DNA of 32,000 bases from an uncultured Candidatus Cenarchaeum sp. (lineage in GTDB: Archaea; Thermoproteota; Nitrososphaeria; Nitrososphaerales; Nitrosopumilaceae). The notes under the pieces are model-generated. The model saw nothing but the letters and a program-made list of their open reading frames with translations, ran no database searches and had not been told where the DNA came from. The position numbers were made by a program, and so were the translations under genes. This document shows positions 2,281 to 30,022 of this stretch, in pieces; the first letter of the stretch is position 1; each line of letters opens with the position of its first letter. The DNA lies in assembly GCA_958295735.1 (NCBI GenBank), contig OY282369.1, positions 324,161 to 356,160 of the forward strand, read 5' to 3'.

Positions 2281-3876
2281 TCACGACGGACGCGGGTCTG
2301 CGCGGCGGAGGCGCGCGTTAGGCGGCCGCGGCCCGGGGGCGGGGCGGGATCCGCGGGGCCGCAGCGATGCGGCGATCCTCCGCACGGCGGCGTTCGCCTC
2401 GTCCCCGAGGGATCGGGGCGCGCCGCCGCCGGCCGCGCCGTCGAACAGCGAGGCCAAGTCGGAGACGTCCCCCTTCCCCAGCCGCGAGACCGGGAGCACG
2501 GGGAGATCCAGGAGATCGCCCGGCTCGAACTTGTGCAGGCCGTTCCCGTACTCCCGCCGGTAGTACACCTGCACGGCCGCGGACAGATCCGAGTTCAGGT
2601 AGCACAGCAGCGCCTTGATCGCGGCGGGATCGGGGGACTTGGGGTAGATGCCGTGGTACGACGCGAGGTTGAGGCACTTTGCCCTGTTGTGCACGAACCT
2701 CATGTAGTCCCTGCTGAACGCGGTGGCCAGTATCGGCGCCGGCTCCCTTTTTTCCACGGAATACCACGGGGCCCTGTGCGCGCACAGGTACCGCTCGTGC
2801 ACCCCCATGCCCTCCCCGCGCGCGATGTATTTTTGGGCGCTCTCCGACGGGCTGCCCGCGCAGCAGAACAGGTGCACCTTCTGCCCGGCGCGCCCCAGCT
2901 CCGCCATGTCGCGCCGGGTCACCGCGTACCCGCGCGCCTGGGAGGCCCTCGACACGACCGGCGCGAGGAAGCGGTCCTCTATCCCCCACTCCGCGCGCTC
3001 CCGCTCCGACACGGTGAAGAATTCGTTGGAGCCGGTGGCGATCCCCCTCTTCACGCCCGCCTCCTCGCGCAGCGGCACCAGCCCGTCCGCCAGTTCGGGG
3101 ATCCCCGCCCCGGGAAAATAGCGCTGCCACTTCGCGTCGGGATCCATGGAGCCCTGCCGCGTCCCGCGCGCCGCCGCGCGCCGCCCGAGCGCCGACGCGT
3201 CGGCGGCCCTGACGAACTTCACCCGGTGGCCCTTCCCCGGCCTCCTGTTCACCATGAGGGTTATCGTGGCGGTGGTGAGGACGCCGGCCCCGAACGCGGG
3301 CCTGCCGAAGTCGAACGTGACGAAGCTGTCTATGGTGAAGTTGCCCAGGAGGAAGCGCTTCAGGGCCTTCCCGTACCCGGTGTAGAGGAACTCCGACGGG
3401 GTTATGAACGCGATCCTCCCCCCCGCCCTCACCGATCTCCCGGCCCTGACCATGAACAGGGCGTAGATGTTTGTGAGCGCGCTGAACCTCACCCCCGCCT
3501 CCTCCGATGCCCGGCGGATCAGGCCGCGGTCGAAGCGGTGGAAGTTGAGGTAGGGCGGGTTGCACACCAGGAAGTCGACCTTTTCGGGATCGTCGTAGCC
3601 CGACAGGTAGTCCTCGTTGCGCAGCTCGAACCTCCCCGCCGCCCCGCCGGCCGTCATGTCCAGGTGGCAGGCGTTAACCATGGTCGGATCCGAGTCTATG
3701 CCGGTCACGCGGTCGGCCCCGAGCGAGAGCGATTTTTTCATGAATATCCCCAGCCCGCACGCGGGATCCAGCACGGTCCTGGCGCCCCCCGCCAGCCCGA
3801 ACCTCACCATGAACTCCGCCACCCCCGGCGGCGTGAAGAACTGCCCCCGCCGCCTGCGGCGGGCCGGATCGGTCAT
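2281..3876 (-). CDS. N6-adenine DNA methyltransferase (gamma-class, Eco57I/TaqI-like) with a C-terminal target-recognition region
   Basis: Motifs GQFFTPPGVAEFMV (X), VLDPACGLGIFM (I) and LVCNPPYLNF (IV, NPPY), plus GIATGSNEFF. The ORF is open to 4242, but the extra 122 codons are Arg/Pro/Gly-rich translated GC spacer. The ATG at 3876 (MTDPARRRRRGQFFTPP) is the conservative start and remains uncertain. Confidence 0.8.
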   Translation of the reverse strand: MTDPARRRRRGQFFTPPGVAEFMVRFGLAGGARTVLDPACGLGIFMKKSLSLGADRVTGIDSDPTMVNACHLDMTAGGAAGRFELRNEDYLSGYDDPEKVDFLVCNPPYLNFHRFDRGLIRRASEEAGVRFSALTNIYALFMVRAGRSVRAGGRIAFITPSEFLYTGYGKALKRFLLGNFTIDSFVTFDFGRPAFGAGVLTTATITLMVNRRPGKGHRVKFVRAADASALGRRAAARGTRQGSMDPDAKWQRYFPGAGIPELADGLVPLREEAGVKRGIATGSNEFFTVSERERAEWGIEDRFLAPVVSRASQARGYAVTRRDMAELGRAGQKVHLFCCAGSPSESAQKYIARGEGMGVHERYLCAHRAPWYSVEKREPAPILATAFSRDYMRFVHNRAKCLNLASYHGIYPKSPDPAAIKALLCYLNSDLSAAVQVYYRREYGNGLHKFEPGDLLDLPVLPVSRLGKGDVSDLASLFDGAAGGGAPRSLGDEANAAVRRIAASLRPRGSRPAPGPRPPNARLRRADPRPS

Positions 3877-4292
3877 CTCGTAGAGGGACGTCAGGTCGCT
3901 GTCCGGGAACGCGCCGCCCGGCGCGGCCGCCTGCTCCACGGGCAGCCGTATCCCGAGCAGCCTGGCGCGGGAGCCCACCTCCGACCGGAACCCTTCCACC
4001 GACACGCGCCCCGCGGAGTCCGCCCGCGGCGGGATCGGATCGCTCGCCACGGCCCGTCCCCCGCGGCGAGTCTTTTTAACGTGGCCGCCCGGCGCGGGGG
4101 GGGGCGCCCCGCGGCATCCGCCTCCCCGCGATCCGCGCGCGCGGGCCCGCGCGCGCGAGGCCGGCAGCCCCCGCCCCGCGGGCGCGAACCCGGATCGGCG
4201 GGGGCGCTTTCGCGCCCGCGGCCGGCGGGCGCGCGGCCCCACGCGCCCGCGCGCTTGAAATACACAAATATGCGGGCCCGGTCCCCGCGCCG

Positions 4293-5138: not shown

Positions 5139-5339
5139 GTGCGGCCCGTGTTCGGCAGGGACATAGAGGACGAGTTCAGCCACGGCATAAGCGACATCTC
5201 GGGGCGCGCGGGGCCGGACGACGCCGGCGCCGGCGCGGAGTGGTGGCCCGTGCCGGGGCTGTTCGCGCTGCTGCTGGCCGGCTTCGAGTCGTTCCTGGGG
5301 GCGGCGGGGCTCCTGCTGGCCCTGTTCAGGCTCAGGTAG
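5139..5339 (+). CDS. possible small membrane protein (66 aa, GTG start)
   Basis: Starts 2 nt after the previous stop. It has a C-terminal hydrophobic segment (WWPVPGLFALLLAGFESFLGAAGLLLALF). Support is weak. Confidence 0.3.
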   Translation: MRPVFGRDIEDEFSHGISDISGRAGPDDAGAGAEWWPVPGLFALLLAGFESFLGAAGLLLALFRLR

Positions 5340-7410
5340 CGCCGGATCGCGCCGGCTCCAGGCGCTCGAGCACCTGCCGCGGGTCGTCGAGCCGCGGCGA
5401 GCACGAAAAGTCGCGGCACACGAACGCCGAGTCGCCCGCGCCGAACTCCTTGCCCCTGAACATCTCGTACCCGGACAGGGCGGCCAGCTGGGCCGCGTCC
5501 CGCACCGTCACCACCGCGGCCTCCGGCGCGTACGCGCCGGACAGCGCCACGGCCATCCTCCCGCCGGCGCCCATCACCGTCACGTCGACGGGCCCGCCCT
5601 CGCGCGCGCAGGCGGCGCAGAGCAGGTGGCCGAACGCGAACGGGTTCTCGGCGGCCCTGCGCGCCTGCGACTCCAGCGCCTTCGCGGCCGCGGCCTCCAT
5701 CTCCGGCTCGCCCGCGATGCCGTGCAGCCGCGAGAACGCGTGCACCGCCGCCGAGCTGCCCGACGGCAGCGAGAGGTCGTGCTCGCTCCGCGGCCTGACT
5801 ATCAGGTCCTCCGCGCCCTCGGCCGTCATGTAGAAGCGCCCCCCGCCCGGATCCCAGAACCTGTCCAGGATGATGCGGCACAGCCCGCGGGCCCGCTCCA
5901 GGTAGCGGGCCTCGGGATCGACCTCGAACAGGTCCAGCAGGGCCGCCGCGTAGAACGCGTGGTCCTCCAGGTACCCGCCGATCCCGGCCCTCCCGTCCTT
6001 GTACGCCCGCATTACCGAGCCCGACGGGCCGGACAGCCGCGACTCGACGAACCGCTCGCACCGCCTGGCCGCCTCCAGGTACGCGGCGCGCCGCGAGGCG
6101 CGGTGCCCGCGGGCCAGGGCCGTTATGGCCAGGGCGTTCCACGACGCTATCGCCTTGCCGTCCAGCCCCGGCGCCTCCCGGGCCGAGTTCCTGTGCTCCA
6201 GCAGGGCATCCCTCCCGCGCCGCAGCGCCGCCTCTACCTTTTCCTCCGTCAGGCCGCACCGGAACGCCACCGCCTGCAGGCCCGCGGAGTTGCTGAGCAC
6301 CGTGGATCCCTCCCAGTTGCCGCCGTCCGTCACGCCGTAGTACAGGCAGAACGGCTCGGCGTCGGCCGCCCCCAGCAGGCGCACTACCTCGGGCTTGGTC
6401 CACGCGTAGAACGCCCCCTCCTCGCCGCCCGCGTCGGCGTCCTGCGAGGAGCAGAACCCGCCCTCCGGCGTGGCGAGCTCGCGCAGCACGTAGTCCAGCG
6501 TCCTCTCCATCACGTCCAGGTAGCGGGCGCTGCCGGTCGCCTGGTACGCCTCGGCGTAGTTCGCGGGGATCAGGGCGTTGTCGTACAGCATCTTTTCAAA
6601 GTGGGGCACGAGCCAGCGCGCGTCCGTGGAGTACCGGTGGAAGCCGCCCCCCACGTGGTCGAATATGCCGCCCCGCGCCATCCCGTCCAGCGTCTTCAGC
6701 GCGAACGCCGTGAACGCCGGGATCCCGGACAGCCGCCCGTACCGCAGCAGGAACGAGACGCAGGCGGCGTTGGGGAACTTGGGGGCGCTCCCGAACCCGC
6801 CGTGCGCCCGGTCCCCCGAGTTCAGCAGGCCGACCGCCGCCTCGTCGAGCGCGGCGCGCCCGAGCCGCTCGGGCCCCGGCCGCCCCTCCGGCCCGTCCCG
6901 CAGCGACAGGGCGAACCGCCCGGCGGCCCTCGCCACTTCGGCGGGGTTCTCGCGCCAGGCCTGCGCCATGCGCCTCAGCAGGCTGCCGAACCCGGGCCGC
7001 CCGTACGAGTCGGACGGCGGAAAGTACGTCCCCGCGTAGAAGGGCTTCAGGTCCGGCGTGAGGAAGACGCTGAGCGGCCAGCCCCCCTGCCCCGTGGCCG
7101 CCTGGCACGCCGCCTGGTATATGTGGTCGATGTCCGGCCGCTCCTCGCGGTCCACCTTCACGTTCACGAAGTGCTCGTTCATCACGGCGGCCACCCCCTC
7201 GTCCTCGAACGACTCGCGGGCCATCACGTGGCACCAGTGGCACGAGCTGTACCCCACGCTGAGGAATATCGGCTTGTTCTCCTCGCGCGCCCTCTCCAGC
7301 GCCGCGGCGTTCCAGGCGTGCCACCGCACGGGGTTGCGCGCGTGCTGCAGGAGGTACGGGCTGGACTCGCCCGCCAGGCCGTTCTCCGCGCCGCCGCTGC
7401 TGCCGTCCAC
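5332..7410 (-). CDS. thioredoxin-domain protein of the DUF255/YyaL type (thioredoxin fold plus six-hairpin glycosidase-like domain)
   Basis: NRL-type N-terminus: GESSPYLLQHARNPVRWHAWNAAALERAREENKPIFLSVGYSSCHWCHVMARESFED...GGWPLSVFLTPDLKPFYAGTYFPP. The ORF is open to 7713, but that extension is a P/R/A-rich spacer translation and overlaps a better small ORF. An in-frame GTG at 7410 (VDGSSGGAENGLAGES) is the proposed start. Confidence 0.9.
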   Translation of the reverse strand: MDGSSGGAENGLAGESSPYLLQHARNPVRWHAWNAAALERAREENKPIFLSVGYSSCHWCHVMARESFEDEGVAAVMNEHFVNVKVDREERPDIDHIYQAACQAATGQGGWPLSVFLTPDLKPFYAGTYFPPSDSYGRPGFGSLLRRMAQAWRENPAEVARAAGRFALSLRDGPEGRPGPERLGRAALDEAAVGLLNSGDRAHGGFGSAPKFPNAACVSFLLRYGRLSGIPAFTAFALKTLDGMARGGIFDHVGGGFHRYSTDARWLVPHFEKMLYDNALIPANYAEAYQATGSARYLDVMERTLDYVLRELATPEGGFCSSQDADAGGEEGAFYAWTKPEVVRLLGAADAEPFCLYYGVTDGGNWEGSTVLSNSAGLQAVAFRCGLTEEKVEAALRRGRDALLEHRNSAREAPGLDGKAIASWNALAITALARGHRASRRAAYLEAARRCERFVESRLSGPSGSVMRAYKDGRAGIGGYLEDHAFYAAALLDLFEVDPEARYLERARGLCRIILDRFWDPGGGRFYMTAEGAEDLIVRPRSEHDLSLPSGSSAAVHAFSRLHGIAGEPEMEAAAAKALESQARRAAENPFAFGHLLCAACAREGGPVDVTVMGAGGRMAVALSGAYAPEAAVVTVRDAAQLAALSGYEMFRGKEFGAGDSAFVCRDFSCSPRLDDPRQVLERLEPARSGAT

Positions 7411-7733: not shown

Positions 7734-8052
7734 GGATTGGGGTCAAACCAATGTTATTTAAATCCACCTTAGGCGCCTGCCCGGTTTTCGGCATCGCGCG
7801 AAAAAACGCGCGCGCGATGATGATGTGCTCCCCCGCAGGACGCGCCGCGCGGGCGGGCGCGGGACGGCCGGGAGGACGGCGGGGGCGGGACGAAGCAACG
7901 CGGGCGGGCTCGTGTCCGAGCCCCTCGACATGGAGTCGTGCGGGAGGATCCTCCGCACGCTGCTCGGGATGGATCCCGGCGAGGACCTCCCGCCGTCCCT
8001 GACCCACTCGCTGGAGTTGAAAAGGAAAAAGGGCGGCGCGGCCCGCGGGGAC

Positions 8053-8432
8053 GGCGGCGCCCCGAAGAAGCGGGAGGGCGGGCAGGGACCGCCTGCCGGC
8101 CGGGGCGCGGGACGGGACAAAGGCGGCGCCCCGAAGAAGCGGGAGGGCGGGCAGGGACCGCCTGCCGGCCGGGGCGCGGGACGGGACAAAGGCGGCGCCC
8201 CGAAGAAGCGGGAGGGCGGGCAGGGACCGCCTGCCGGCCGGGGCGCGGGACGGGACAAAGGCGGCGCCCCGAAGAAGCGGGAGGGCGGGCAGGGACCGCC
8301 TGCCGGCCGGGGCGCGGGACGGGACAAAGGCGGCGCCCCGAAGAAGCGGGAGGGCGGGCAGGGACCGCCTGCCGGCCGGGGCGCGGGACGGGACAAAGGC
8401 GGCGCCCCGAAGAAGCGGGAGGGCGGGCAGGG
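8053..8432. repeat. perfect 69-bp tandem repeat, ~5.5 copies
   Basis: Unit 'ggcggcgccccgaagaagcgggagggcgggcagggaccgcctgccggccggggcgcgggacgggacaaa' starts at 8053, 8122, 8191, 8260, 8329 and 8398, with copies identical on inspection. Confidence 0.95.
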
Positions 8433-8598
8433 CAGGGAAACGCCGCGGAGGCGCGGCCCGGGGCGCGCCTGACGCCCGGGGGCGCGGCGGGCCGGAACGG
8501 CGGAGGACGGGAACGCGCGGGGCCGCGGCGCGTGGCGAGCGCCGCCCGGCCCGCGCGCCGGGGAGCCCTGGCCAGGGGGCCGCGGCGCGTGGTTGAGG

Positions 8599-8672
8599 TG
8601 GACTGAGGGGGATTTGAACCCCCGATTCCCCGCGTGCAAGGCGGGTGTACTACCAGGCTATACTATCAGCCC
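8599..8672 (-). tRNA. tRNA-Ala (anticodon UGC)
   Basis: Reverse complement GGGCUGAUAGUAUAGCCUGGUAGUACACCCGCCUUGCACGCGGGGAAUCGGGGGUUCAAAUCCCCCUCAGUCCA folds as a cloverleaf. It has the G3:U70 Ala identity pair, anticodon loop CUUGCAC, and T-loop UUCAAAU. A TATA-like 'gaattaaaatc' lies 24-32 nt upstream. No CCA is encoded. Confidence 0.9.
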
Positions 8673-8713
8673 ACGGCGCGGTTGCGCGCGTGCCGATTTT
8701 AATTCTTGCTAGC

Positions 8714-8761
8714 GGGCGGGCGGGCGGGCGGGCGGGCGGGCGGGCGGGCGGGCGGGCGGGC
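8714..8761. repeat. (GGGC)12 tetranucleotide microsatellite
   Basis: Twelve uninterrupted GGGC units lie between the tRNA-Ala TATA and the TATA of the 8850 gene. The paralogous copy at ~10456 has only 2 units. Confidence 0.95.
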
Positions 8762-8849
8762 GCGCCGTCCCGAAACCGCCGCGCGCCGCCGCGGGGTCCC
8801 CGGCCCCGCCCGGCAAGGGTTTTATGGGCGCCGCCCGCGGGGGGTGCTC

Positions 8850-9260
8850 ATGTCCCCTTGCGGCGCCCCCGTATGGCTGACCAAGATGGAGCGGCTGGCC
8901 GGCGACTACTACGACGAACCCGGGCGTTCCTACGGGGACGCGGCGTTCAACGCCACCCTCGCCTCCGGCGATCTCTGGCGCGGGCTGTTCGGCGAACTCG
9001 TGGAGCACGCGGAGGGGGCGCGGCCGGAAGCGGAACCGGGCGAAGTGCTCGCCATAATACAGCATGCGTATCCCGAAATATTCCGCCAGATAGTCGATTT
9101 CGCCGGCCACGTAAGCGACCGCGAATGGAACGAGGCGAAGCGGGCCGTCGAACTGGCCGTCGCCGCCGTCGACAAGGCGGGGGGCCCGGACTGCGTGATG
9201 CGGCGCCTGAGGGACGGCGCGAATTCCAGCGAGGGGCGGAAGCTGGAGGCCGAGGCATGA
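8850..9260 (+). CDS. hypothetical protein (136 aa), first gene of the cassette
   Basis: MSPCGAPVWLTKMERLAGDYYDEPGRSYGDAAFNATLASGDLWRGLFGELVEHAEG... A 'ttttat' box at 8820-8825 lies 25 nt upstream of the ATG at 8850. The stop TGA overlaps the next ATG (ATGA at 9257-9260). Confidence 0.6.
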   Translation: MSPCGAPVWLTKMERLAGDYYDEPGRSYGDAAFNATLASGDLWRGLFGELVEHAEGARPEAEPGEVLAIIQHAYPEIFRQIVDFAGHVSDREWNEAKRAVELAVAAVDKAGGPDCVMRRLRDGANSSEGRKLEAEA

Positions 9261-9427
9261 CTGCCGCTCTCGATCACCTCGACTGCACTACCTGCTACCA
9301 TTCCTTGCTGGCCCACTGGCCGGCAGGCAAGTGCAAGGCGACGAACGGCGTGCGAGGCTGCCGCTGCGCGCGCTTCGTGGGGACCGACGGCAAGAACTCC
9401 GACGACTGGCCGGGGGAGAAGGCATGA
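9257..9427 (+). CDS. small Cys/His-rich protein, tandem unit 1 of 5 (56 aa)
   Basis: MTAALDHLDCTTCYHSLLAHWPAGKCKATNGVRGCRCARFVGTDGKNSDDWPGEKA. There is an ATGA start/stop overlap at both ends. Confidence 0.6.
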   Translation: MTAALDHLDCTTCYHSLLAHWPAGKCKATNGVRGCRCARFVGTDGKNSDDWPGEKA

Positions 9428-9591
9428 CCGCCGCCGATCACCTCGACTGCACTACCTGCTACCATTCCTTGCTGGCCCACTGGCCGACCGGCAGTTGCAA
9501 AGTGTCGGACGGCATGGAAGACTGCCACTGCGAGCGCTTCGTGGGGACCGACGGCAAGAACTCCGACGACTGGCCGGGGGAGAAGGCATGA
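9424..9591 (+). CDS. small Cys/His-rich protein, tandem unit 2 of 5 (55 aa)
   Basis: MTAADHLDCTTCYHSLLAHWPTGSCKVSDGMEDCHCERFVGTDGKNSDDWPGEKA. ATGA overlaps at both ends. The unit period is 164 nt. Confidence 0.6.
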   Translation: MTAADHLDCTTCYHSLLAHWPTGSCKVSDGMEDCHCERFVGTDGKNSDDWPGEKA

Positions 9592-9755
9592 CCGCCGCCG
9601 ATCACCTCGACTGCACTACCTGCTACCATTCCTTGCTGGCCCACTGGCCGACCGGCAACTGCAAAGCGACGAACGGCGTGCAAGCCTGCGGCTGCGAGCG
9701 CTTCGTGGGGACCGACGGCAAGAACTCCGACGACTGGCCGGGGGAGAAGGCATGA
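9588..9755 (+). CDS. small Cys/His-rich protein, tandem unit 3 of 5 (55 aa)
   Basis: MTAADHLDCTTCYHSLLAHWPTGNCKATNGVQACGCERFVGTDGKNSDDWPGEKA. ATGA overlaps at both ends. Confidence 0.6.
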   Translation: MTAADHLDCTTCYHSLLAHWPTGNCKATNGVQACGCERFVGTDGKNSDDWPGEKA

Positions 9756-9919
9756 CCGCCGCCGATCACCTCGACTGCACTACCTGCTACCATTCCTTGC
9801 TGGCCCACTGGCCGACCGGCAACTGCAAAGCGACGAACGGCGTGCAAGCCTGCGGCTGCGAGCGCTTCGTGGGGACCGACGGCAAGAACTCCGACGACTG
9901 GCCGGGGGAGAAGGCATGA
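9752..9919 (+). CDS. small Cys/His-rich protein, tandem unit 4 of 5 (55 aa; nucleotide-identical to unit 3)
   Basis: Read directly from the sequence; the ORF is too short to appear in the supplied ORF track. Its DNA is identical to 9588-9755. Confidence 0.55.
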   Translation: MTAADHLDCTTCYHSLLAHWPTGNCKATNGVQACGCERFVGTDGKNSDDWPGEKA

Positions 9920-10107
9920 CCTACGGCGATCCCACGGCCTGCGCCACCTGCTACCATTCCATGCTGGCCCACTGGCCGACCGGCAGTTGCAAAGTGTCGG
10001 ACGGCATGGAAGACTGCCACTGCGAGCGCTACATACGGGACGACGGCGGGAACTCCGACGACTGGCCGGAAGCGAAGGCACGATCTACGACGACGGCCGG
10101 GACATAG
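9916..10107 (+). CDS. small Cys/His-rich protein, tandem unit 5 of 5 (63 aa, diverged ends, read-through tail)
   Basis: MTYGDPTACATCYHSMLAHWPTGSCKVSDGMEDCHCERYIRDDGGNSDDWPEAKARSTTTAGT. The core is identical to unit 2. The usual ATGA junction is ACGA here, so the ORF runs 8 extra codons to a TAG. Confidence 0.55.
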   Translation: MTYGDPTACATCYHSMLAHWPTGSCKVSDGMEDCHCERYIRDDGGNSDDWPEAKARSTTTAGT

Positions 10108-10262
10108 TCGACAATCCGGAGGCCGCCCCCGAATCGTACGGCGAGGACGGCGAGGACGAATCCGACACGATCGAGCACGGCGAGCACCCCGACTATGACG
10201 AGTTCCAAAAATGCCACGAGGAGATCGAGCAGCGCCAGGGATTCTACCACGACGACGCGGAG
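10080..10262 (+). pseudogene. acidic ORF remnant lacking a start codon (sixth position of the chain)
   Basis: Begins with ACG exactly where ATG occurs in units 1-5: (T)IYDDGRDIVDNPEAAPESYGEDGEDESDTIEHGEHPDYDEFQKCHEEIEQRQGFYHDDAERG. The frame then runs without a stop into direct-repeat copy B and the tRNA. Confidence 0.35.
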
Positions 10263-10546
10263 CGGGGCCGCGGCGCGTGGCGGGCGCCGCCCGGCCCGCG
10301 CGCCGGGGAGCCCCGGCCCGGGGGCCGCGGCGCGTGGCTGAGGTGGACTGGGGGGATTCGAACCCCCGATTCCACGCGTGCAAGGCGGGCGCACTACCGG
10401 GCCATACTGTCAGCCCACGGCGCGGTTGCGCGCGTGCCGATTTTAGTTCTTGCTAGCGGGCGGGCGCGCCGTCCCGAAACCGCCGCGCGGCGCCGCGGGG
10501 TCCCCGGCCCCGCCCGGCAAGGGTTTTATGGGCGCCGCCCGCGGGG
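10263..10546. repeat. direct repeat copy B (GC-rich segment + tRNA-Ala-like + bidirectional promoter)
   Basis: Paralog of 8518-8843. It has the same internal 'ggggccgcggcgcgtgg' doublet, the same tRNA upstream region ('gattttagttcttgctagc') and the same 'caagggttttatgggcgccgcccgcgggg'. Confidence 0.9.
10344..10416 (-). tRNA. tRNA-Ala(UGC)-like second copy, degenerate (possible pseudogene)
   Basis: 73 nt. Relative to copy 1 it has U8->C, a C:U mismatch in the anticodon stem (GCGUG versus GCGGG), a weaker D stem, and a 1-nt deletion at the T-stem/acceptor junction that leaves the 3' acceptor strand one base short. Confidence 0.55.
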
Positions 10547-10551
10547 AGCCC

Positions 10552-11103
10552 GTGGCCGTTACGGAATCCAGGAGGGTGCTCGTGGCGGGCGACGGCGCGC
10601 CGGACTTTGATCTGGAGGGGATCGACGGCGCCAGGCACTCGCTTTCGTCGTACTCTGGGTACGACGCCCTTCTCGTGGTGTTCATGTGCAACCACTGCCC
10701 CTTCGTGAAGGCGAAGGTGGAGGCCATGAAGGAGATCCACGGCAGGTTCAAGGACAGGGTGGCCGTGGTCGGGATAAACAGCAACGACGCGGCCAGGTAC
10801 CCGGACGACAGTTTCGAGAGCATGAAGAGCGTGGCGGCGGAGAAGGGAATCTCCTTCGACTACTTGGTGGACGGGACGCAGGACGTGGCCAGGAGGTACG
10901 GGGCATCCTGCACGCCGGACCCGTTCCTCTTCGACGGGGACAGGAAGCTCGTGTTCCACGGCAGGATCGACGATGCCGCGAATCCCGACGACGCGGCCAC
11001 GGAGAAGACGATGGTCAACAACATCGCGGCGCTTTTGGACGGCAGGGGGATCGAGAAGGACTTCGATCCGTCCGTCGGCTGCTCCATAAAGTGGAAGGAG
11101 TAG
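10552..11103 (+). CDS. thioredoxin-fold redoxin (AhpC/TSA-TlpA-like thiol-disulfide oxidoreductase)
   Basis: GAPDFDLEGIDGARHSLSSYSGYDALLVVFMCNHCPFVKAKV...VVGINSNDAARYPDDSFESMK...ASCTPDPFLFDGDRKLVFHGRIDD. GTG at 10552 lies 23 nt after the 'ttttat' box (10524-10529), mirroring the copy A geometry. The ATG at 10528 lies inside that box, and the track ORF start at 10450 is spacer. Confidence 0.85.
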   Translation: MAVTESRRVLVAGDGAPDFDLEGIDGARHSLSSYSGYDALLVVFMCNHCPFVKAKVEAMKEIHGRFKDRVAVVGINSNDAARYPDDSFESMKSVAAEKGISFDYLVDGTQDVARRYGASCTPDPFLFDGDRKLVFHGRIDDAANPDDAATEKTMVNNIAALLDGRGIEKDFDPSVGCSIKWKE

Positions 11104-11193: not shown

Positions 11194-11290
11194 GGGCCGG
11201 TAGCTCAGCTTGGCTGGAGCGTTCGACTGATAGTCTCGGTCAGGATCAGAGATCGAAAGGTCGTGAGTTCGAATCTCACTCGGCCCACCA
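11194..11290 (+). tRNA. tRNA-Ile (anticodon GAU) with a 19-nt canonical intron and encoded CCA
   Basis: GGGCCGG UA GCUC..GAGC G UUCGA CUGAUA [gtctcggtcaggatcagag, 11233-11251] A UCGAA AGGUC GUGAG UUCGAAU CUCAC UCGGCCC A CCA. A TATA-like 'acttaaatcc' lies ~25-30 nt upstream. Confidence 0.85.
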
Positions 11291-13651: not shown

Positions 13652-13725
13652 GCTTCGATAGCTCAGCCTGGTAGAGCGTTACCTTGGTAAGGTAAAGGTC
13701 ACGGGTTCGGATCCCGTTCGAAGCT
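13652..13725 (+). tRNA. tRNA-Thr (anticodon GGU)
   Basis: GCUUCGA UA GCUC AGCCUGGUA GAGC G UUACC UUGGUAA GGUAA AGGUC ACGGG UUCGGAU CCCGU UCGAAGC U. A TATA-like 'aattataagga' lies ~25-30 nt upstream. Confidence 0.9.
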
Positions 13726-14576
13726 CAGAAATTCCTGATCAGCAGCTCGTGGTGGCCCGACCTGCCGGACGAGTCGGAGTTGATCAGCCTGTTGGCGGTG
13801 AGCTTGGCCACGTTCCACCCGCCGAAGAGCCTGCGCACCGGCTCGGTGTCCGAGTTGGAGAGGACCACGCGGCACCCCGCCCCGTCCAGGCGGGCGTACT
13901 CGGAGGCCAGCCTCTCCAGGTCGGCGGCCACAAAGTCCCCCCCGGTGTACTGCGTAAAGCTGGCGGTCGCGCTCACCGGCTGGTAGGGCGGATCGAGGTA
14001 GACAAAGTCGCCCTCCCCCGCGCCGGCCAGCGCATCCGCAAAGTCGCCGGACGAGATCCGCACGTTCCCGGATCCCAGCAGCCGGCTGGCGGCCCGCAGG
14101 CCCTCCTCGTTCACTATGTTCGGGTTGGCGTACCTGCCCATCGGCACGTTGAACTTTCCGCGGCGGTTCACGCGGTACAGCCCGTTGAAGCACGTCCTGT
14201 TCAGGAACACCAAGCGGGAGCACACAGACACGGGATCCGACGGCTCCTCGCCCCGCACGCGGTAGTAGTACCCGGAACGGTCCTCCGCGTAGCCCGCGGC
14301 GTGGCCCCTGAGCGACTCTATGAGCTCGTCCACCCTGTCGCGCACCACCGTATACGCGAGGATCAGATCGGCGTTGAGATCCGAGACGAGGCAACGACGG
14401 CCGGGATCGAGCAGGAGCGTGTAGAACAGGACTGCCCCGCCGCCCAAAAAGGGCTCGAAGTACCTGCCGAACTCCCTCGGAAAGTACTCGCTCATGGCGG
14501 GAATGAGCCGCCTCTTTCCCCCGGCCCACTTTACGAACGGCCGCGGGGCCCTGTCTGCCAGATGCTGCTTGGGCAA
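13725..14576 (-). CDS. Dam-type (D12 class) N6-adenine DNA methyltransferase
   Basis: PFVKWAGGKRRLIPAM...YFEPFLGGGAVLF (SAM-binding FxGxG) and FVYLDPPYQPVS (DPPY catalytic motif). The stop codon (13725-13727) touches the discriminator base of tRNA-Thr. Confidence 0.9.
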   Translation of the reverse strand: MPKQHLADRAPRPFVKWAGGKRRLIPAMSEYFPREFGRYFEPFLGGGAVLFYTLLLDPGRRCLVSDLNADLILAYTVVRDRVDELIESLRGHAAGYAEDRSGYYYRVRGEEPSDPVSVCSRLVFLNRTCFNGLYRVNRRGKFNVPMGRYANPNIVNEEGLRAASRLLGSGNVRISSGDFADALAGAGEGDFVYLDPPYQPVSATASFTQYTGGDFVAADLERLASEYARLDGAGCRVVLSNSDTEPVRRLFGGWNVAKLTANRLINSDSSGRSGHHELLIRNF

Positions 14577-14843: not shown

Positions 14844-15494
14844 TCAGTCCCACTTGGACCATGCGGCCATCCATCTGTACGTCCAGGTGTTCAGTTTGAC
14901 ACCTAACGCTGCCATGGTGACCGACAAGACAGCACCAGCGCCAGCACCTAACGCCACCGGACTGTTATAGAACTTCCCGACTTGGGGTTCTATTGGAGTC
15001 ATGTACGGGGGCAACGTGGGACGCGGGTACTTGAATGCCGTCTCCAGCGGGTCTGCCACTGTGATAAGATTTACCATGTTGAACAACGGCAACGACATGC
15101 CGACCAGCACGCCGCCGAACAGTATCAGCGAGTGCTTGTTCCGCTTTGTCGCCCAGTACGCCAAATCCAACAGCATCGCCGATGGAAGCCACACCGGAGT
15201 GACGATGAAGTCGTACGGGTAACCAAGTGCGAACCAAGCGCCCTTTGCCACCCAAGTGTACACCGTCATGATTAGCGCGTAGTACGTCGCCGTACCTGGA
15301 ACGCCCGTGAACGTGAGGTAGTACGTTGCGCCTACGACCAGCATCAGGGTTTGCGATATGGAGAACACCGTGTACGACGTCCATGCCCAATCAGTGTAGA
15401 AGATGTAGTCTCCTGCGTTAATTGTCAACAGGGTCGAGTTCACTGCAACCACTATTATGAACAAGTAGTGCGTGCACCGCCTAAGCCAGACCAT
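14844..15494 (-). CDS. amoA: ammonia monooxygenase subunit A (archaeal)
   Basis: 216 aa: MVWLRRCTHYLFIIVVAVNSTLLTINAGDYIFYTDWAWTSYTVFSISQTLMLVVGATYYLTFTGVPGTATYYALIMTVYTWVAKGAWFALGYPYDFIVTPVWLPSAMLLD... This is the canonical thaumarchaeal AmoA sequence and length. Confidence 0.97.
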   Translation of the reverse strand: MVWLRRCTHYLFIIVVAVNSTLLTINAGDYIFYTDWAWTSYTVFSISQTLMLVVGATYYLTFTGVPGTATYYALIMTVYTWVAKGAWFALGYPYDFIVTPVWLPSAMLLDLAYWATKRNKHSLILFGGVLVGMSLPLFNMVNLITVADPLETAFKYPRPTLPPYMTPIEPQVGKFYNSPVALGAGAGAVLSVTMAALGVKLNTWTYRWMAAWSKWD

Positions 15495-15515
15495 TGCTGG
15501 ATTGAAAAGGAGGTC

Positions 15516-15532
15516 AGTATATAAAATTTTAG
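15516..15532 (-). promoter_or_regulatory. TATA box of amoA
   Basis: The minus strand reads 'taaaattttatatact' 23-38 nt upstream of the ATG at 15494. It is an AT island in a GC-rich context. Confidence 0.55.
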
Positions 15533-15670
15533 AAGCGCTCTAGGCCGGCGCCTTTTGGCCGGATCCCGCCCCGCAGGGGCCCGCCGCGCGCCTTTTCCCC
15601 GCCGGCGGGGGCGGACGGCGGTTCCTGCGCCGGCGGGGGCGGGGCTGGAGGCACCCGCCGGCGGGACGGG

Positions 15671-15810
15671 GCCGGCTCGGGCGGGCTGCCGCGTCCCGGG
15701 CCCTCTCCGGCCGGCTCGGGCGGGCTGCCGCGTCCCTGGGAGCCCGCTCCGGGCGGGCTGCCGCGTCCCTGGGAGCCCGCTCCGGCCGGCTCGGGCGGGT
15801 TGCCGCGCGC
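15671..15810. repeat. imperfect ~34-38-bp tandem repeats in the amoA-amoX spacer
   Basis: 'ggccggctcgggcgggctgccgcgtcc' and 'gggcgggctgccgcgtccctgggagcccgctcc' recur 3-4 times. Confidence 0.8.
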
Positions 15811-15876
15811 GAACGGCCCGGCCGCAGCTGCCGCTCCCCCGCACGGGCACCGGTGCTAATGCCCACAGGCACGGAT

Positions 15877-15888
15877 AGAGAAAAATGC
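15877..15888 (-). terminator. T-tract after the amoX stop
   Basis: The minus strand reads TGAgtctccgaccctcgcATTTTTCTCT. Confidence 0.4.
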
Positions 15889-15901
15889 GAGGGTCGGAGA
15901 C

Positions 15902-16264
15902 TCAGTTGCCCACGAACAGCGAGATCAGCACCGTGCCGATCGCGGTACCGCCGAGCGTTACGCCCACGAGACCATTGCTCTTCTTTGTAGAGCCTTCCTC
16001 CGACACCTTCACGCTGAAGAGGTAGCCGATGGCTTCCACGATAGTCAGCACGATGAAGGCATAGTGGCCGCTCGGAGTGGGGTACGCCCAAGGATAGTAG
16101 TAGTATCCAGCAGCCGTACCGCCAAAGGTGGCAAGCCAAGCCGCGATGTAGGAAATCGTGATAAGACCCGTCATGTTTTCGACGCGCCGGCCGATCATTC
16201 TCTCGACGTCTGCAGAACCCGTGCCTCCGGCACCGCCCGATCCAAATCCCTTCGGAAGAGTCAT
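15902..16264 (-). CDS. amoX: AmoX (small three-TM protein conserved between amoA and amoC in archaeal amo clusters)
   Basis: 120 aa from the ATG at 16264: MTLPKGFGSGG...GLITISYIAAWLATFGGTAAGYYYYPWAYPTPSGHYAFIVLTIVEAIGYLFSV...GLVGVTLGGTAIGTVLISLFVGN. The position matches amoX. The 223-aa track ORF extends into GC spacer. A TATA box lies 20-33 nt upstream of 16264. Confidence 0.85.
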   Translation of the reverse strand: MTLPKGFGSGGAGGTGSADVERMIGRRVENMTGLITISYIAAWLATFGGTAAGYYYYPWAYPTPSGHYAFIVLTIVEAIGYLFSVKVSEEGSTKKSNGLVGVTLGGTAIGTVLISLFVGN

Positions 16265-16283
16265 TTGGACTGACGCAATACTG

Positions 16284-16297
16284 AATATATTAAAATC
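16284..16297 (-). promoter_or_regulatory. TATA box of amoX
   Basis: The minus strand reads 'gattttaatatattc' directly upstream of the ATG at 16264. Confidence 0.5.
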
Positions 16298-16747
16298 TTT
16301 CCTTGCTGAATCCGCGTTATATACTGCGCCGGGAGGCGCTCCCGCCCGCGTCTGCGAGCGGGCGCGGCAGCGGCCGGCAGGTCCCGCCCGCGGCCGCCTC
16401 CCGGAGCGGCCGGCTCCCTGGCCAGGCGCGCGGCGGAACGCGGCGGCGGGCCCCACGGGTCCAAGGCGCGCGGGCGAAGGGGCCGCGCGGCCGCTTCGTT
16501 TCCGCCAAGCGGCCAGCCGCCAGGCGCGGTTCCAGGCGCGCCCGGCCGTCGCCGGCAGGCGGCGGCATCCCATCTGCCGCGGCGCGGCCTGCGCCCCGCG
16601 GTCCCGCCCCCTCCCGCCGCGCTGCCTGCCGGCGGAACCGGCGATCGCGCATCGCGCCTAGGGCTTGGACGACCTGGCAGCTTTGGCAGCGGCGGCCCGC
16701 GCGCCGGCGGGCGGCAGCATGCAGGGCGGCATCAGGAGGCCGAAGGC

Positions 16748-16934
16748 GGGAGGCCGGCGGGGAGGGGGCGGGAGGCCGGCGGGGAGGGGGCGGGAGGCCG
16801 GCGGGGAGGGGCACGTCCGCCCCGGGGCCAGGCCGGGCAGGGCAGGCCGGCGGGGAGGTGGCGGGAGGCCGGCGGGGAGGGGCACGTCCGCCCCGGGGCC
16901 AGGCCGGGCAGGGCAGGCCGGCGGGGAGGTGGCG
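16748..16934. repeat. nested tandem repeats (22-bp x3, then 71-bp x2) in the amoX-amoC spacer
   Basis: 'gggaggccggcggggaggggg' occurs at 16748, 16770 and 16792. The 71-bp unit 'gggaggccggcggggaggggcacgtccgccccggggccaggccgggcagggcaggccggcggggaggtggc' occurs at 16792 and 16863. Confidence 0.85.
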
Positions 16935-16991
16935 CTGGCGTCCGGACGCCCGGGGTCGGCGCCTGCCGGGTCAGGGGCGCGAAGTGAAAAG

Positions 16992-17101
16992 GGCGCTGGC
17001 GCTGCCGGGGTCCGCAGGCAATCGATCCCCGCTTGCGGACGGGCCGCACCTCCACGTTGTTGAAGGCGCTGGCGCTGCCGGGGTCCGCAGGCAATCGATC
17101 C
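16992..17101. repeat. 37-bp segment duplicated at 73-bp spacing
   Basis: 'ggcgctggcgctgccggggtccgcaggcaatcgatcc' occurs at 16992 and 17065. Confidence 0.85.
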
Positions 17102-17323
17102 GGCGGCGCTGGCACGTGCCGAGTTTCGCGCGGTTCCGGCGGCCGCGAACGAACCCGGGAGCCGCCGGCGGGGCGGACGGCGGGCGCCGGGCATCCAGTA
17201 GCGCCAGGAGCGCGGTTCCGGCGGCGGCCGGTGCCGCTCCCCCGATGCGCCGTTCGGCAAACCAGAGGCCGGAGGAAAGAACAGCGGCGGCCCCTGACGG
17301 GGGGAGCGGCGGGCGGGCGGACC

Positions 17324-17427
17324 CGCGCGGCGCGCGGGCCGGAATGGCGCGGCGCTTTTCGCGAGCGGAACGGCGCCCTGTTCCCGCGGGCACCTCGCGC
17401 GGCGCGCGGGCCGGAATGGCGCGGCGC
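17324..17427. repeat. 32-bp segment duplicated at 72-bp spacing
   Basis: 'cgcgcggcgcgcgggccggaatggcgcggcgct' occurs at 17324 and 17396. Confidence 0.85.
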
Positions 17428-17636
17428 TGCCGCGGACGCTCCGCGGGACCGTCCCGCATTACGCAACGGCGCCCGCCGCGGCGCGCGGCCCGGCAGATGC
17501 TTTTCCCCCGCGTCCCCGCCGGCGGCCGCGGGCGGAAGGGCGCGCGGCCCCGCGCGGGGCCGGCCCGGAAAGGGCGGCGGCGGCCCGGCTGCGGGAGGCC
17601 GGATGCGGCGCGGATCCGCGCGCCGCGGTCACGGGG

Positions 17637-17737
17637 CCGGCAGGGGGCCGCCGGCCGGGGAGGCGGATCCTCTCCGCGGCGGCCCGCCGCCCGTCCCGCG
17701 CCGGCAGGGGGCCGCCGGCCGGGGAGGCGGATCCTCC
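17637..17737. repeat. 36-bp segment duplicated at 64-bp spacing
   Basis: 'ccggcagggggccgccggccggggaggcggatcctc' occurs at 17637 and 17701. Confidence 0.85.
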
Positions 17738-17748
17738 CCCACCGTCAG

Positions 17749-17760
17749 CAAAGAAAAAAG
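17749..17760 (-). terminator. T-tract after the amoC stop
   Basis: The minus strand reads TAAccgcaggtcgcgctttcgcacggcCTTTTTTCTTTG about 25 nt downstream of the stop at 17785-17787. Confidence 0.45.
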
Positions 17761-17784
17761 GCCGTGCGAAAGCGCGACCTGCGG

Positions 17785-18348
17785 TTATGGGATTGAGCGG
17801 CTGTACAGCTTGCCCTCTAGGGCCATCTTGTACATTTCCGCGACGTACGGGTTTTCGCCGGGCGTCTCCGCCCCGAGCTCGACCAGCCGCGCGTACACCC
17901 TGACCACGTAGGCCAAGGCGCCCATGAAGGCCACCACCACGCCCATGTTGAACATCCAGTGGTTGGGAACGGCGAAGATCTCCTCGACGAACCAAAAGTG
18001 CCACATCTCGTTGACGCCGATCGTGAACATGGTGGCAAGGTAACCGAGTATGGTCATCTTGAGCCCCGTGTTCATCGAGTTGTTCGGGCCTCTGAGTATG
18101 GGCACCCTTCTGTCGTAGATTGCGACCGCACCCCATCCCAGCGGCAGAGCCACGAAGTGGGAGTACAGCCACCAGTGCGCCGGTGTGAACGCGCTGTCCC
18201 TTATGGACGTCTGGTGCAGCGAGCCGTCGACGAAGTTGTCAACCTCGACCGACGCCGCGGTGGAACCCATTGCGATTACGATGAGCCAGATCTTTTTGAG
18301 CCTCTGGATCTCGACCTCTTTTGGGATCAATGCAGGCATTTGTGCCAT
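17785..18348 (-). CDS. amoC: ammonia monooxygenase subunit C (archaeal)
   Basis: 187 aa: MAQMPALIPKEVEIQRLKKIWLIVIAMGSTAASVEVDNFVDGSLHQTSIRDSAFTPAHWWLYSHFVALPLGWG...FTIGVNEMWHFWFVEEIFAVPNHWMFNMG. This is the canonical thaumarchaeal AmoC. Confidence 0.95.
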   Translation of the reverse strand: MAQMPALIPKEVEIQRLKKIWLIVIAMGSTAASVEVDNFVDGSLHQTSIRDSAFTPAHWWLYSHFVALPLGWGAVAIYDRRVPILRGPNNSMNTGLKMTILGYLATMFTIGVNEMWHFWFVEEIFAVPNHWMFNMGVVVAFMGALAYVVRVYARLVELGAETPGENPYVAEMYKMALEGKLYSRSIP

Positions 18349-18370
18349 TGGCTACCAGTCTGCCACGCGA

Positions 18371-18385
18371 CGTATAAGGCAATAG
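18371..18385 (-). promoter_or_regulatory. TATA-like box of amoC
   Basis: The minus strand reads 'tattgccttatacg' 24-36 nt upstream of the ATG at 18348. It lies in the AT-richer divergent amoC/amoB intergenic region. Confidence 0.4.
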
Positions 18386-18542
18386 GGCCGCGGCCCGCCC
18401 GCGAACGATCAAAAAACCACACCCGCAAAGGCGGGAGTGATGCTATTAATGCAGGAATGACACATATGAAGATAATATTTTAGGCCAGTTTTCGCCCCCT
18501 CCTCCATGCTAACCATCAATGATAAGCACTCACCCGCAAGGT

Positions 18543-18555
18543 AAAACATATAACG
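18543..18555 (+). promoter_or_regulatory. TATA box of amoB
   Basis: 'aaaacatataacg'. It is too close to the track ORF ATG at 18560, but 35-47 nt upstream of ATG 18590/18593. Confidence 0.5.
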
Positions 18556-18589
18556 TTCCATGTTGGGCGGCAAGAATCAAGGGATAGCA

Positions 18590-19159
18590 ATGATGGACAA
18601 GAAGATACTAGTGATAGGACTCGGCGCCGTACTGGCCTTGGGCACGCTCGGCTTCAACTGGATCGAGGCCGTCCTGCCCACGGTGGAGGCGCACGGCGTC
18701 CAGGCGCAGCTGCAGAGCCGCTTCGTGAGGATAGAAGACGAGACGTTCAACAGGCAGTCCCTCCAGACGGGCGAGACCCTGTGCCTCTCCGGCCAGTTCG
18801 TCAGCTTGGTGGAAAGGGACATGAGGGCGTGGAACTCCATATTCTCGGAGTCGACGAACGCCGGCAACCGCTGGGAGATCCTCTCCAGGGACCCGCCCGG
18901 AAACGTCTTTGATCTTCCAGGCAACTCCGTAGTTCCGTACGAGATATGCGCCAAGGCGCTGGAGCCTGGCCTGTACCACGTCCACACCCAGCTCAATGTG
19001 GCGCAGGTCGGCCCGGGCCTCGGCCCAGGGCAGACGGTGGTCGTTGACGGGGAGTACATCGTGAAGGAGATACCTTACGTGAACATTGCGTACCAGTCGA
19101 TCATCATCGGCGTCGGTTACGTGATCACGTTCGCGACGAGGCCCTGGCAGGTCATCTGA
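18590..19159 (+). CDS. amoB: ammonia monooxygenase subunit B (archaeal)
   Basis: MMDKKILVIGLGAVLALGTLGFNWIEAVLPTVEAHGVQAQLQSRFVRIEDETFNRQSLQTGE...: a signal/TM segment, then HGVQAQLQSRF, typical of archaeal AmoB, and a C-terminal TM. The start at 18590 is preferred over 18560 because of the TATA position. Confidence 0.95.
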   Translation: MMDKKILVIGLGAVLALGTLGFNWIEAVLPTVEAHGVQAQLQSRFVRIEDETFNRQSLQTGETLCLSGQFVSLVERDMRAWNSIFSESTNAGNRWEILSRDPPGNVFDLPGNSVVPYEICAKALEPGLYHVHTQLNVAQVGPGLGPGQTVVVDGEYIVKEIPYVNIAYQSIIIGVGYVITFATRPWQVI

Positions 19160-19374: not shown

Positions 19375-19440
19375 TCCCCCCCCCCCCCGGCCCAAGGACG
19401 GCGCGCGGCGCCCGGAGTGCCGCGGCTTCCGCCGGCCCGC

Positions 19441-19552
19441 GCGGGGCCGGCAGGCCGCCCGTCCGCATCCCGGCGCGGGGCCGGCAGGCCGCCCGTCCGC
19501 ATCCCGGCGCGGGGCCGGCAGGCCGCCCGTCCGCATCCCGGCGCGGGGCCGG
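19441..19552. repeat. 34-bp tandem repeat, 3 full copies plus a partial
   Basis: 'gcggggccggcaggccgcccgtccgcatcccggc' starts at 19441, 19475 and 19509, with a partial copy at 19543. Confidence 0.9.
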
Positions 19553-19640
19553 CCGCCGAGCCTCCGCGGCCGCCGGGCGCACGGGCCCCGGCGGAGGCGC
19601 GGCAGAAATTGATTTTACGCCCGGGAGCGCGGCGTGCGGC

Positions 19641-22042: not shown

Positions 22043-22355
22043 AACCGGTTCGCCTGGCCGGGGGGGGCGCTATCCCGAAATCGGTTCGCCTGGCCGGGGG
22101 GGGCGCTATCCCGAAATCGTTTCGCCTGGCCGGGGGGGGCGCTATCCCGAAATCGTTTCGCCTGGCCGGGGGGGGCGCTATCCCGAAATCGTTTCGCCTG
22201 GCCGGGGGGGGGCGCTATCCCGAAATCGTTTCGCCTGGCCGGGGGGGGGCGCTATCCCGAAATCGTTTCGCCTGGCCGGGGGGGGGGGCGCTATCCCGAA
22301 ATCGTTTCGCCTGGCCGGGGGGGGGGGGCGCTATCCCGAAATCGTTTCGCCTGGA
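22043..22355. repeat. 36-40-bp tandem repeat (8 units plus a partial) with a stepwise lengthening poly-G tract
   Basis: The unit is 'gcgctatcccgaaatcgtttcgcctggcc' plus G(n). The G-runs I counted are 8, 8, 8, 8, 9, 9, 11 and 12. Unit starts are 22067, 22103, 22139, 22175, 22212, 22249, 22288 and 22328. Confidence 0.9.
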
Positions 22356-22398: not shown

Positions 22399-22485
22399 GC
22401 GCGCCATCCCGAAATCGTTTCGCCTGGAAGGCGGATCAATGGGAGGAGATGGAGCGATCCCGAAATCGTTTCGCCTGGAAGGCGG
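22399..22485. repeat. two dispersed copies of the same repeat core
   Basis: 'atcccgaaatcgtttcgcctggaaggcgg' occurs at ~22406 and ~22457. 'ggggcgcccgcgggctgccgcaggaagcaaagccggcgc' follows, duplicated at 22484-22560. Confidence 0.8.
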
Positions 22486-29988: not shown

Positions 29989-30022
29989 TCCCAAAAGTGG
30001 CGACCCTCCCTTCACCTGACAC
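29795..30022 (-). pseudogene. N-terminally truncated zinc metalloprotease (metzincin/matrixin-type HExxHxxGxxH)
   Basis: The 75-aa ORF contains NIKYVANHELGHFAGLGHA, then a (DS)4 linker and a Cys-containing tail. The ~100 aa that normally precede the zinc site are missing. In frame upstream there is a TGA (30050-30052), which is the transposase stop. Confidence 0.6.

Follow-up and report, generated by a model that had tools for sequence, protein, structure and literature searches.

In gene 'accordions', of which poxvirus K3L is an example, a gene engaged in conflict is amplified in tandem and its copies are then diversified. The locus considered here is an array of five short genes for a Cys/His-rich protein of about 55 amino acids (aa) in the genome of an uncultured Candidatus Cenarchaeum sp., an ammonia oxidiser of ~70% GC; the stretch of 32,000 nucleotides (nt) that was analysed as a whole (contig OY282369.1 of assembly GCA_958295735.1, positions 324,161–356,160 of the forward strand) is called the window. 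Like the K3L accordion, the locus shows tandem copy gain of a small gene of apparently viral origin, amino-acid changes and recombination between copies, but unlike it the array is located in the host chromosome and has five copies in all contigs found. As expected of concerted evolution, the array has identical inner copies, with divergence highest at its edges, and holds a short patch of conversion, while the repeat differs from the general case in being exactly one gene with its coupling junction, which is why the frame rotates by 2 nt per unit. Similar to elements integrated at tRNA genes, the cassette that holds the array is bracketed by tRNA-Ala direct repeats, one tRNA intact and one decayed; in contrast to tRNA-targeted elements the repeats of ~300 bp hold the whole tRNA and both its flanks instead of a short 3' segment of the tRNA, and the insert is 1.4 kb without integrase. 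The array is built from known processes, i.e., gene-exact duplication at a coupling junction, concerted evolution and patch conversion, and is not a new kind of system. Judged by its sequence and that of its relatives, it is a real tandem amplification of an uncatalogued small Cys/His gene, and comparison with other contigs strongly supports the view that it represents the amplified middle gene of a three-gene fragment from the small-gene operon of a virus-like element of ~58 kb. The overall explanation that fits best, combining an origin from this element, amplification driven by the gene junctions, later exchange between copies and a predicted binding function of the product, is given a probability of about 0.6.

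Tandem Repeats Finder (TRF) reports a single array at 9253–10080, with 5.0 copies, a period of 164 nt and 91% matches. Together with the list of open reading frames (ORFs) this agrees with the initial annotation, which had described five ORFs overlapping at ATGA with a 164-nt period:

9257–9427, forward strand: unit 1, 56 aa, core AGKCKATNGVRGCRCA
9424–9591, forward strand: unit 2, 55 aa, with the flanks of unit 3 and the core of unit 5 (putative conversion patch)
9588–9755, forward strand: unit 3, 55 aa
9752–9919, forward strand: unit 4, 55 aa, equal to unit 3
9916–10107, forward strand: unit 5, 63 aa, the most diverged copy, stop codon TAG at 10105–10107

The motif GGCATGA is present at all internal junctions of the array, where the start of each unit overlaps the preceding stop. 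An insertion of 3 nt brings unit 1 to 167 nt, and unit 5 extends to its TAG because its terminal ATGA junction is mutated to ACGA. A 29-nt unit motif occurs five times in the window, compared to 0 expected. The homologues described below occupy the corresponding ATGA-coupled position as 57-aa genes standing on their own, which supports the proposal of several coupled genes over that of a single repeat protein. Separate contigs of ERZ19489113, a metagenome assembled from long reads, also carry the five-unit array (100% and 99.993% identity), and every unit protein is recorded on the same five contigs. Because the array recurs in separate long-read contigs, an assembly artefact is an unlikely source. 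Codon positions 1, 2 and 3 of each proposed unit frame have GC contents of about 0.54, 0.55 and 0.85, respectively, and the third-position GC (GC3) of 0.83–0.88 across the frames resembles the high GC3 of the host genes in the window. Homologues are conserved at the amino-acid level in the forward frames, and their insertions and deletions are multiples of 3. A true gene on the opposite strand had been considered earlier; GC3 and amino-acid conservation to distant relatives uphold the forward strand, and on this evidence the array genes are encoded there.

Units 3 and 4 are identical. Unit 2 has 10 differences from unit 3, all within 34 nt (unit positions 70–103), where the initial annotation had placed the differences in a core of ~50 nt, and a span as small as this was obtained in 0 of 200,000 random placements. 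Unit 1 also has 10 differences from unit 3, of which 8 fall in the core (binomial P = 0.003). Between unit 2 and unit 5 there are 23 differences, yet an identical tract of 69 nt spans the core (P = 1.5e-5), which bears out both the statement that unit 5 holds the unit 2 core within diverged flanks and the suggestion of gene conversion. The comparison supports a description of unit 2 as unit 3 with a conversion patch of 34–69 nt from unit 5. Unit 5 is ~20% diverged from unit 3 along its full length and not in the core alone (33 of 168 aligned nt). Its flank states Met16, Arg-Tyr at 38–39 and Arg41 are common to the element and to a second chromosomal locus (locus 2), and unit 5 is for this reason taken as the oldest copy; similarly, the core CKATNGV of units 1, 3 and 4 is taken as the ancestral type because the element has the same core. 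Identical inner copies with diverged edge copies are the expected product of unequal crossing-over. The identical flanks with a mosaic core, which had been likened to variable-ligand or immunity-type loci, are real, but they largely reflect recent homogenisation and a single conversion patch from an old and generally diverged copy.

The element is represented by two contigs of 57,908 and 58,016 bp (s4016.ptg006388l and ptg008057l) from the same metagenome, both carrying the gene for a 57-aa homologue of the units (P0006). On one contig the gene is found 7.6 kb after the start, on the other its distance to the equivalent end is ~13.5 kb, and the differing offsets may indicate a circular or permuted replicon. 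The gene content was read over 20 kb (L014, 1–20414) of the ~58-kb contigs, and comprises ~40 overlapping co-directional genes, among them those for the large subunit of ribonucleotide reductase, a dUTPase, at least six DNA methyltransferases and three proteins resembling 3'-phosphoadenosine-5'-phosphosulfate (PAPS) reductase. With this content it resembles a region for replication and DNA modification in a virus. The many modification genes suggest heavy DNA modification, possibly as a means of evading host restriction. The module is single-copy in the element and is ordered as a 137-aa gene, the 57-aa Cys/His gene and then a small acidic gene, with a 142-aa gene standing between the latter two; in the element as at locus 2 the small gene is always preceded by the ATGA-coupled 137-aa gene. 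In a tblastx comparison of the window with the element this module was the sole strong similarity. The cassette also has the composition of the element: its GC content is 66.4% (0.62/0.50/0.85 at codon positions 1/2/3) and that of the element 66.6% (0.64/0.50/0.86), compared to 69.7% for the window outside the cassette, where most host genes have a GC3 of 0.90–0.97 and amoA 0.73. The fragment now resides in the host chromosome between two tRNA-Ala segments, behind a promoter-like box that it has in common with the element. Transfer from element to chromosome is the favoured direction, given that the copies in the chromosome are incomplete and have decayed sequence around them.

The junctions between genes offer a way in which the array may have been formed. 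Over 16 kb of the element RGGCATGA is found at 5 gene junctions, and its occurrences in the window are essentially confined to the array. In the element operon that starts with the 137-aa gene, the junctions are cgaGGCATGAc, cgaaGGCATGAa, cgaGGCATGAa and tgaaGGCATGAc, and the element consensus (C/T)GA(A/G)GGC-ATGA encodes '...EA/KA stop' overlapping 'Met-Thr/Asn'. The 142-aa gene has GGGCGAAG at both boundaries, and it is conceivable that recombination between the two GGGCGAAG copies created the junction at the end of unit 5, GCGAAGGCA(T>C)GA. The small gene in the chromosomal fragment has the junction motif AGGCATGAC at both ends, so that unequal recombination or replication slippage between these 9-nt repeats could result in an exact one-gene duplication. 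Such a duplication would account for the 164-nt period (168 minus the 4-nt overlap), for the rotating frames and for an ATGA at each joint. Later unequal exchange would have homogenised the inner copies while the edge copies diverged, and a conversion patch of 34–69 nt would have carried the core between units 5 and 2. We infer this junction-based mechanism from the repeats themselves, and the route is a plausible one that can be read from the sequence.

The initial annotation was confined to the five units. Context can now be added in the form of an ATGA-coupled 136-aa gene, a truncated downstream gene, tRNA-Ala repeats and the element origin. The cassette spans 1.4 kb (8843–10261) and is bracketed by direct repeats of ~300 bp that are 92–99% identical:

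8517–8842: direct repeat copy 1 (left bracket), pairing with copy 2; contains tRNA-Ala, a (GCGG)n run and a promoter-like segment
8597–8672, reverse strand: intact tRNA-Ala(UGC), found by ARAGORN, 64.7 bits with the Rfam tRNA model
8820–8825, forward strand: TATA-like TTTTAT, read from the sequence, 24 nt before ATG 8850
8850–9260, forward strand: 136-aa partner gene, product predicted all-helical, stop overlapping the start of unit 1 (ATGA)
10080–10261, forward strand: fragment of a small acidic gene, with ACG in place of the start codon and the 3' end lost at repeat copy 2
10262–10546: direct repeat copy 2 (right bracket), found by repeat search, pairing with copy 1
10342–10417, reverse strand: decayed tRNA-Ala, called by ARAGORN, under the Rfam gathering score
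10524–10529, forward strand: second TATA-like box, with equal spacing to GTG 10552 of the redoxin gene
10552–11103, forward strand: AhpC/TSA redoxin gene (Pfam AhpC-TSA, E = 2.7e-19), a host gene directly behind repeat copy 2

The last ~45–65 nt of repeat copy 1 are homologous to the DNA upstream of the 137-aa gene both in the element (L005) and in locus 2 (L008/L009). The centre of the TTTTAT box is located ~27 nt upstream of ATG 8850, which fits the geometry of a leaderless transcript, and the element has TATTTA at an equal distance before the start of its 137-aa gene; the box is a putative promoter. The redoxin gene stands directly behind a copy of the same promoter-like segment. The 136-aa protein is 67–70% identical in amino acids to the 137-aa proteins of the element and of L008, and has no match in Pfam, PHROG, PADLOC or NCBIfam. 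The acidic fragment has no other canonical start and a coding-type GC distribution over codon positions (0.72/0.30/0.87). It is weakly but collinearly similar to the 97-aa acidic gene of the element, with xxxDDG shared at the N-terminus and G.HPDYD...EE in mid-protein. The tRNA-like sequence at 10342–10417 is considered a pseudo-tRNA because of the change U8C and the mismatches C28-U42 and A7-C66. The (GCGG) run in repeat copy 1 (8712–8762) has 12.8 copies versus ~2 in copy 2, and this microsatellite is therefore likely to have expanded after the duplication. A search for an empty site by look-up of the redoxin protein found only array-carrying contigs. The second chromosomal copy of the module, with its own 57-aa product (P0007), has the following position:

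L008/L009, 7591–8174: module of locus 2

P0007 is listed for the 3.17-Mb contig that holds the window proteins as well as for shorter contigs. At locus 2 the small gene is single-copy, and its neighbours are a methyltransferase and transposases.

An HMMER scan of 1.84 billion representative proteins with a profile of the units yielded three real relatives only: P0006 (57 aa, E = 2e-20), P0007 (57 aa, E = 2e-15) and a domain of P0009 (E = 7e-5). P0009 is a 182-aa protein from assembly GCA_044328205.1, encoded in an actinobacterial prophage-like region with DnaB, methylase, HNH and WhiB genes. The statement that the family was not recognised is upheld by profile and sequence searches. The units, P0006, P0007, P0009 and the partner had no Pfam, NCBIfam or PADLOC match at E up to 0.1–1, zinc-finger, TRASH/YHS, metallothionein and defence families included, and sequence and profile searches of the PDB gave nothing meaningful for unit or partner. 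With a single unit as query, a word-indexed protein search retrieved nothing but that unit, and family alignments added nothing past the HMMER relatives. Pattern scans gave two spurious 16-aa matches only in GTDB species genomes and no relative in IMG/VR and JGI metagenomes. Neither P0009 nor P0006 had a tblastn match among GenBank phages. When the P0009 domain alone was used at E up to 10, weak leads were obtained, of which gp83 of Rhodococcus phage Tonitrus (PP978825.1 56551–57285; L012 2093–2827) was informative. Among PLSDB plasmids the single tblastn match of P0009 was to an unannotated Streptomyces plasmid (E = 4e-16). In gp83 the motif is repeated four times in a single chain; modest support for the relationship comes from its best repeat, which scores 15.4 bits against the family profile, and from an hhalign comparison of the archaeal family with the four gp83 repeats (61% probability, E = 8e-5). 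gp83 is itself an orphan: it falls into neither a Pfam nor a PHROG family, and a set of 50,697 phage records holds no relative. Weak full-length matches to the phage family phrog_1311 (E = 0.005–0.07) were found for five of the six small-gene family members, and none for P0007.

The units have the motif C-x2-C-x-H-x4-H-x5-C-x8-C-x-C-x2-F, and the spacing common to the archaeal and the phage or prophage proteins is C-x(1-2)-C-x-H-x4-H-x(4-6)-C-x(5-12)-C-x-C-x2-[FY]. Seven conserved residues had been claimed, and C9, C12, H14, H19, C25, C34 and C36 are indeed present in 5/5 units; in the wider family of seven sequences, one of them bacterial, only C9, H19, C25, C34 and C36 are invariant. A generic zinc-binding mini-domain is expected to have at least four invariant Cys/His ligands, and five were found in the seven sequences. 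We infer a small metal-binding domain, probably for zinc, of a type found in the early regions of mobile elements. The five invariant residues would be the ligands, to which C12 and H14 possibly contribute, and the loop between C25 and C34 would form an exposed recognition surface. The actinobacterial proteins P0009, gp83 and phrog_1311 resemble the array units in ligand spacing, and all of them, the archaeal genes included, have mobile-element genes for early functions, replication or DNA modification around them. They differ in that the bacterial motif sits in larger proteins, four times per chain in gp83, while the archaeal array consists of a stand-alone 55-aa gene in five copies. The bacterial contexts are also without the 137-aa partner, the proteins are uncharacterised, and the statistical links are weak. 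As the motif is multiplied in gp83 too, repeated copies may matter for function. It is tempting to speculate that the units are metal-binding proteins whose translation is coupled by termination and reinitiation and that act together with the 137-aa partner in virus–host conflict or regulation, but this can be proposed only tentatively.

Several observations count against the combined explanation of element origin, junction-driven amplification and predicted binding function. First, no capsid or terminase gene was present in the 20 kb of the element that were read, an integrase and attachment site were not identified, with no integrase gene between the direct repeats, and the explanation offers no account of how the ~300-bp repeats arose. 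Second, there is decay around the cassette, in the form of the pseudo-tRNA and the start-less truncated downstream gene, as well as at locus 2, where C12 and H14 are missing from the small protein and the 137-aa gene, intact in L008, is a pseudogene in the strain variant L009 (GTG start, 1-nt deletion, premature TAG). Third, the AlphaFold2 (AF2) models are poor, with a predicted local distance difference test (pLDDT) score of 54 for the unit and 45 for the partner. Fourth, substitutions among the small-gene copies are mostly non-synonymous. The ratio of non-synonymous to synonymous substitution rates (dN/dS), estimated by the Nei–Gojobori method, is 0.4–2.5 in pairwise comparisons of the entire small gene, i.e., near 1, and 0.56–0.96 for the partner gene. 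For core residues 22–37 it is 0.9–4.8 and for the flanks 0.4–1.6. With counts this low and a strong codon bias, the ratios fit relaxed constraint and positive selection equally. Some purifying selection is nevertheless visible: in unit 5 all 7 of the 7 Cys/His codons are unchanged although 22 of 55 codons have changed (P ~0.02), and five ligands are invariant as far as the bacterial protein.

The same decay and the dN/dS ratios near 1 are what one would expect if the cassette were a dead integration fragment, its copies a product of the repeat expansion seen elsewhere in this genome, and its ORFs open only since stop codons are rare at 66–70% GC. The window has 31 TRF rows in 32 kb, many of them perfect GC-rich arrays, and the array-carrying contigs show no sequence variation, both of which agree with a neutral relic, as does the loss of C12 and H14 and of the partner in one strain at locus 2. 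A neutral relic is for these reasons a serious alternative. On the other hand 5/5 starts, 4/4 coupled stops and 35/35 Cys/His codons of the array are intact, with unit 5 keeping every ligand against the background of changed codons just described. The 136-aa partner is also intact behind a promoter-like geometry as in the element, and the other tandem repeats of the window are non-coding and have periods of no more than 75 nt. A neutral origin is therefore held to be possible but rather doubtful.

A more specific role would be that the host has kept and multiplied the viral mini-protein, with its partner, as loop variants that interfere with the related 58-kb virus, e.g., as decoys for the viral partner or its target, so that the locus would function as a superinfection-immunity array. 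The recurrent ATGA junction would then be a cassette boundary that permits precise deletion, duplication or swapping of single genes. This is considered improbable.

Amplification could instead serve gene dosage, as in the tandem CUP1 arrays of yeast, with the units acting as Cu/Zn buffers or chaperones for ammonia monooxygenase or in metal protection. Seven Cys/His in 55 residues, amoA, amoC and amoB only 5–9 kb away from the array and three thioredoxin-fold genes around the cassette would suit such a role. However, every relative is encoded either in the virus-like element or in a phage or prophage region of actinobacteria, and none beside metal genes, there is no Pfam match to metal-binding domains, and with 5 Cys in 55 residues (9%) and W, Y, F and H present the protein is unlike metallothioneins, which are very rich in Cys in CxC/CxxC clusters and have few or no aromatic residues. 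Simple dosage also leaves the diverged cores unexplained. Metal handling is very unlikely because of these mobile-element contexts and because the composition of the cassette is that of the element.

Tandem short genes with conserved ends and a variable middle containing Cys, Thr and Ser, next to a conserved, presumably co-transcribed and uncharacterised partner, could also be precursors of a natural product, with an N-terminal leader, a variable Cys/Ser/Thr core, a conserved follower and the 136-aa protein as recognition or modification factor. This is highly improbable, as no maturation enzyme (such as lanthipeptide synthetase, YcaO or radical SAM) was found among the called genes within ~10 kb, in the 20 kb of the element or among the neighbours of locus 2, and as the motif is embedded in larger proteins (P0009 with 182 aa, gp83 with 4 repeats), which a cleaved precursor would not be; in addition the conserved Cys/His positions cross the supposed core. 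Finally, long minus-strand ORFs (152 and 198 aa) do exist, and high-GC DNA yields many spurious ORFs, but an artefact or a minus-strand gene is hardly credible given the identical array in separate long-read contigs, the forward-frame conservation of the homologues, the GC3 of the units, and minus-strand ORFs that are rich in Arg/Ser/Pro and traverse the units in rotating frames.

Other candidates were considered and rejected. Mutagenesis by a diversity-generating retroelement is ruled out because the changes are not adenine-specific: among those leading from unit 3 to unit 2 are C>T, G>A, C>G, C>A and G>C besides A>G and A>T. No reverse transcriptase was found among the Pfam-marked called genes at 1–19.9 kb of the window and in 9 further ORFs, 20–28 kb not being exhaustively scanned. 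A single frameshifted polyprotein was rejected, as TGA ends each coupled unit, and so was a TRASH/YHS domain (suggested by the string 'CYHS'), which has no Pfam match.

Viruses of sponge-type, high-GC ammonia-oxidising archaea are poorly known. The locus ties a host chromosome to a ~58-kb virus-like replicon in one sample and points to gene flow between both. It is also a clean example of a repeated translational-coupling junction that may serve as a recombination site, giving gene-exact duplications and probably deletions too, and the small protein defines an uncatalogued Cys/His motif that also appears in actinobacterial phages. The five loop variants would, provided that the copies are expressed, constitute a small tractable system for a new predicted metal-binding mini-domain.

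The ammonia monooxygenase cluster (14844–19159; amoA, a 98-aa gene, amoC and amoB) begins 5 kb from the array and is flanked by a Dam-type methyltransferase gene at 13725–14576, and an Eco57I-type methyltransferase/restriction gene is found at 2281–4050. Sponge-associated Thaumarchaeota are described as having elevated GC and abundant restriction-modification genes (PMC7848895). The thioredoxin-fold genes within 10 kb encode a DsbA-like protein (834–2057), a Thioredox_DsbH-like protein (5332–7410) and the AhpC/TSA redoxin (10552–11103). A 97-nt intron-containing tRNA at 11194–11290 is called tRNA-Tyr with an odd anticodon by ARAGORN, and scores 54.4 bits with Rfam, with a 20-nt insertion in the anticodon loop. 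GC-rich perfect or near-perfect tandem repeats, apparently non-coding, are located at 8053–8432, 1727–2024, 19439–19553, 22049–22354 and 22482–22576; examples are 5.5 copies of 69 bp (100% identity), immediately to the left of the cassette, and 8.2 copies of 36 bp. Gene callers make ORFs of some of them, e.g., a 180-aa call at 7930–8472. The region from 29000 to 30000 is an island of low GC (44% compared to ~70%) with an ORF for a membrane-anchored protein of 217 aa (29155–29808, reverse strand) that has no Pfam match. This island is probably a recent foreign insertion, and it is adjoined by a transposase-like ORF with an integrase core (rve) at 30157–31014.

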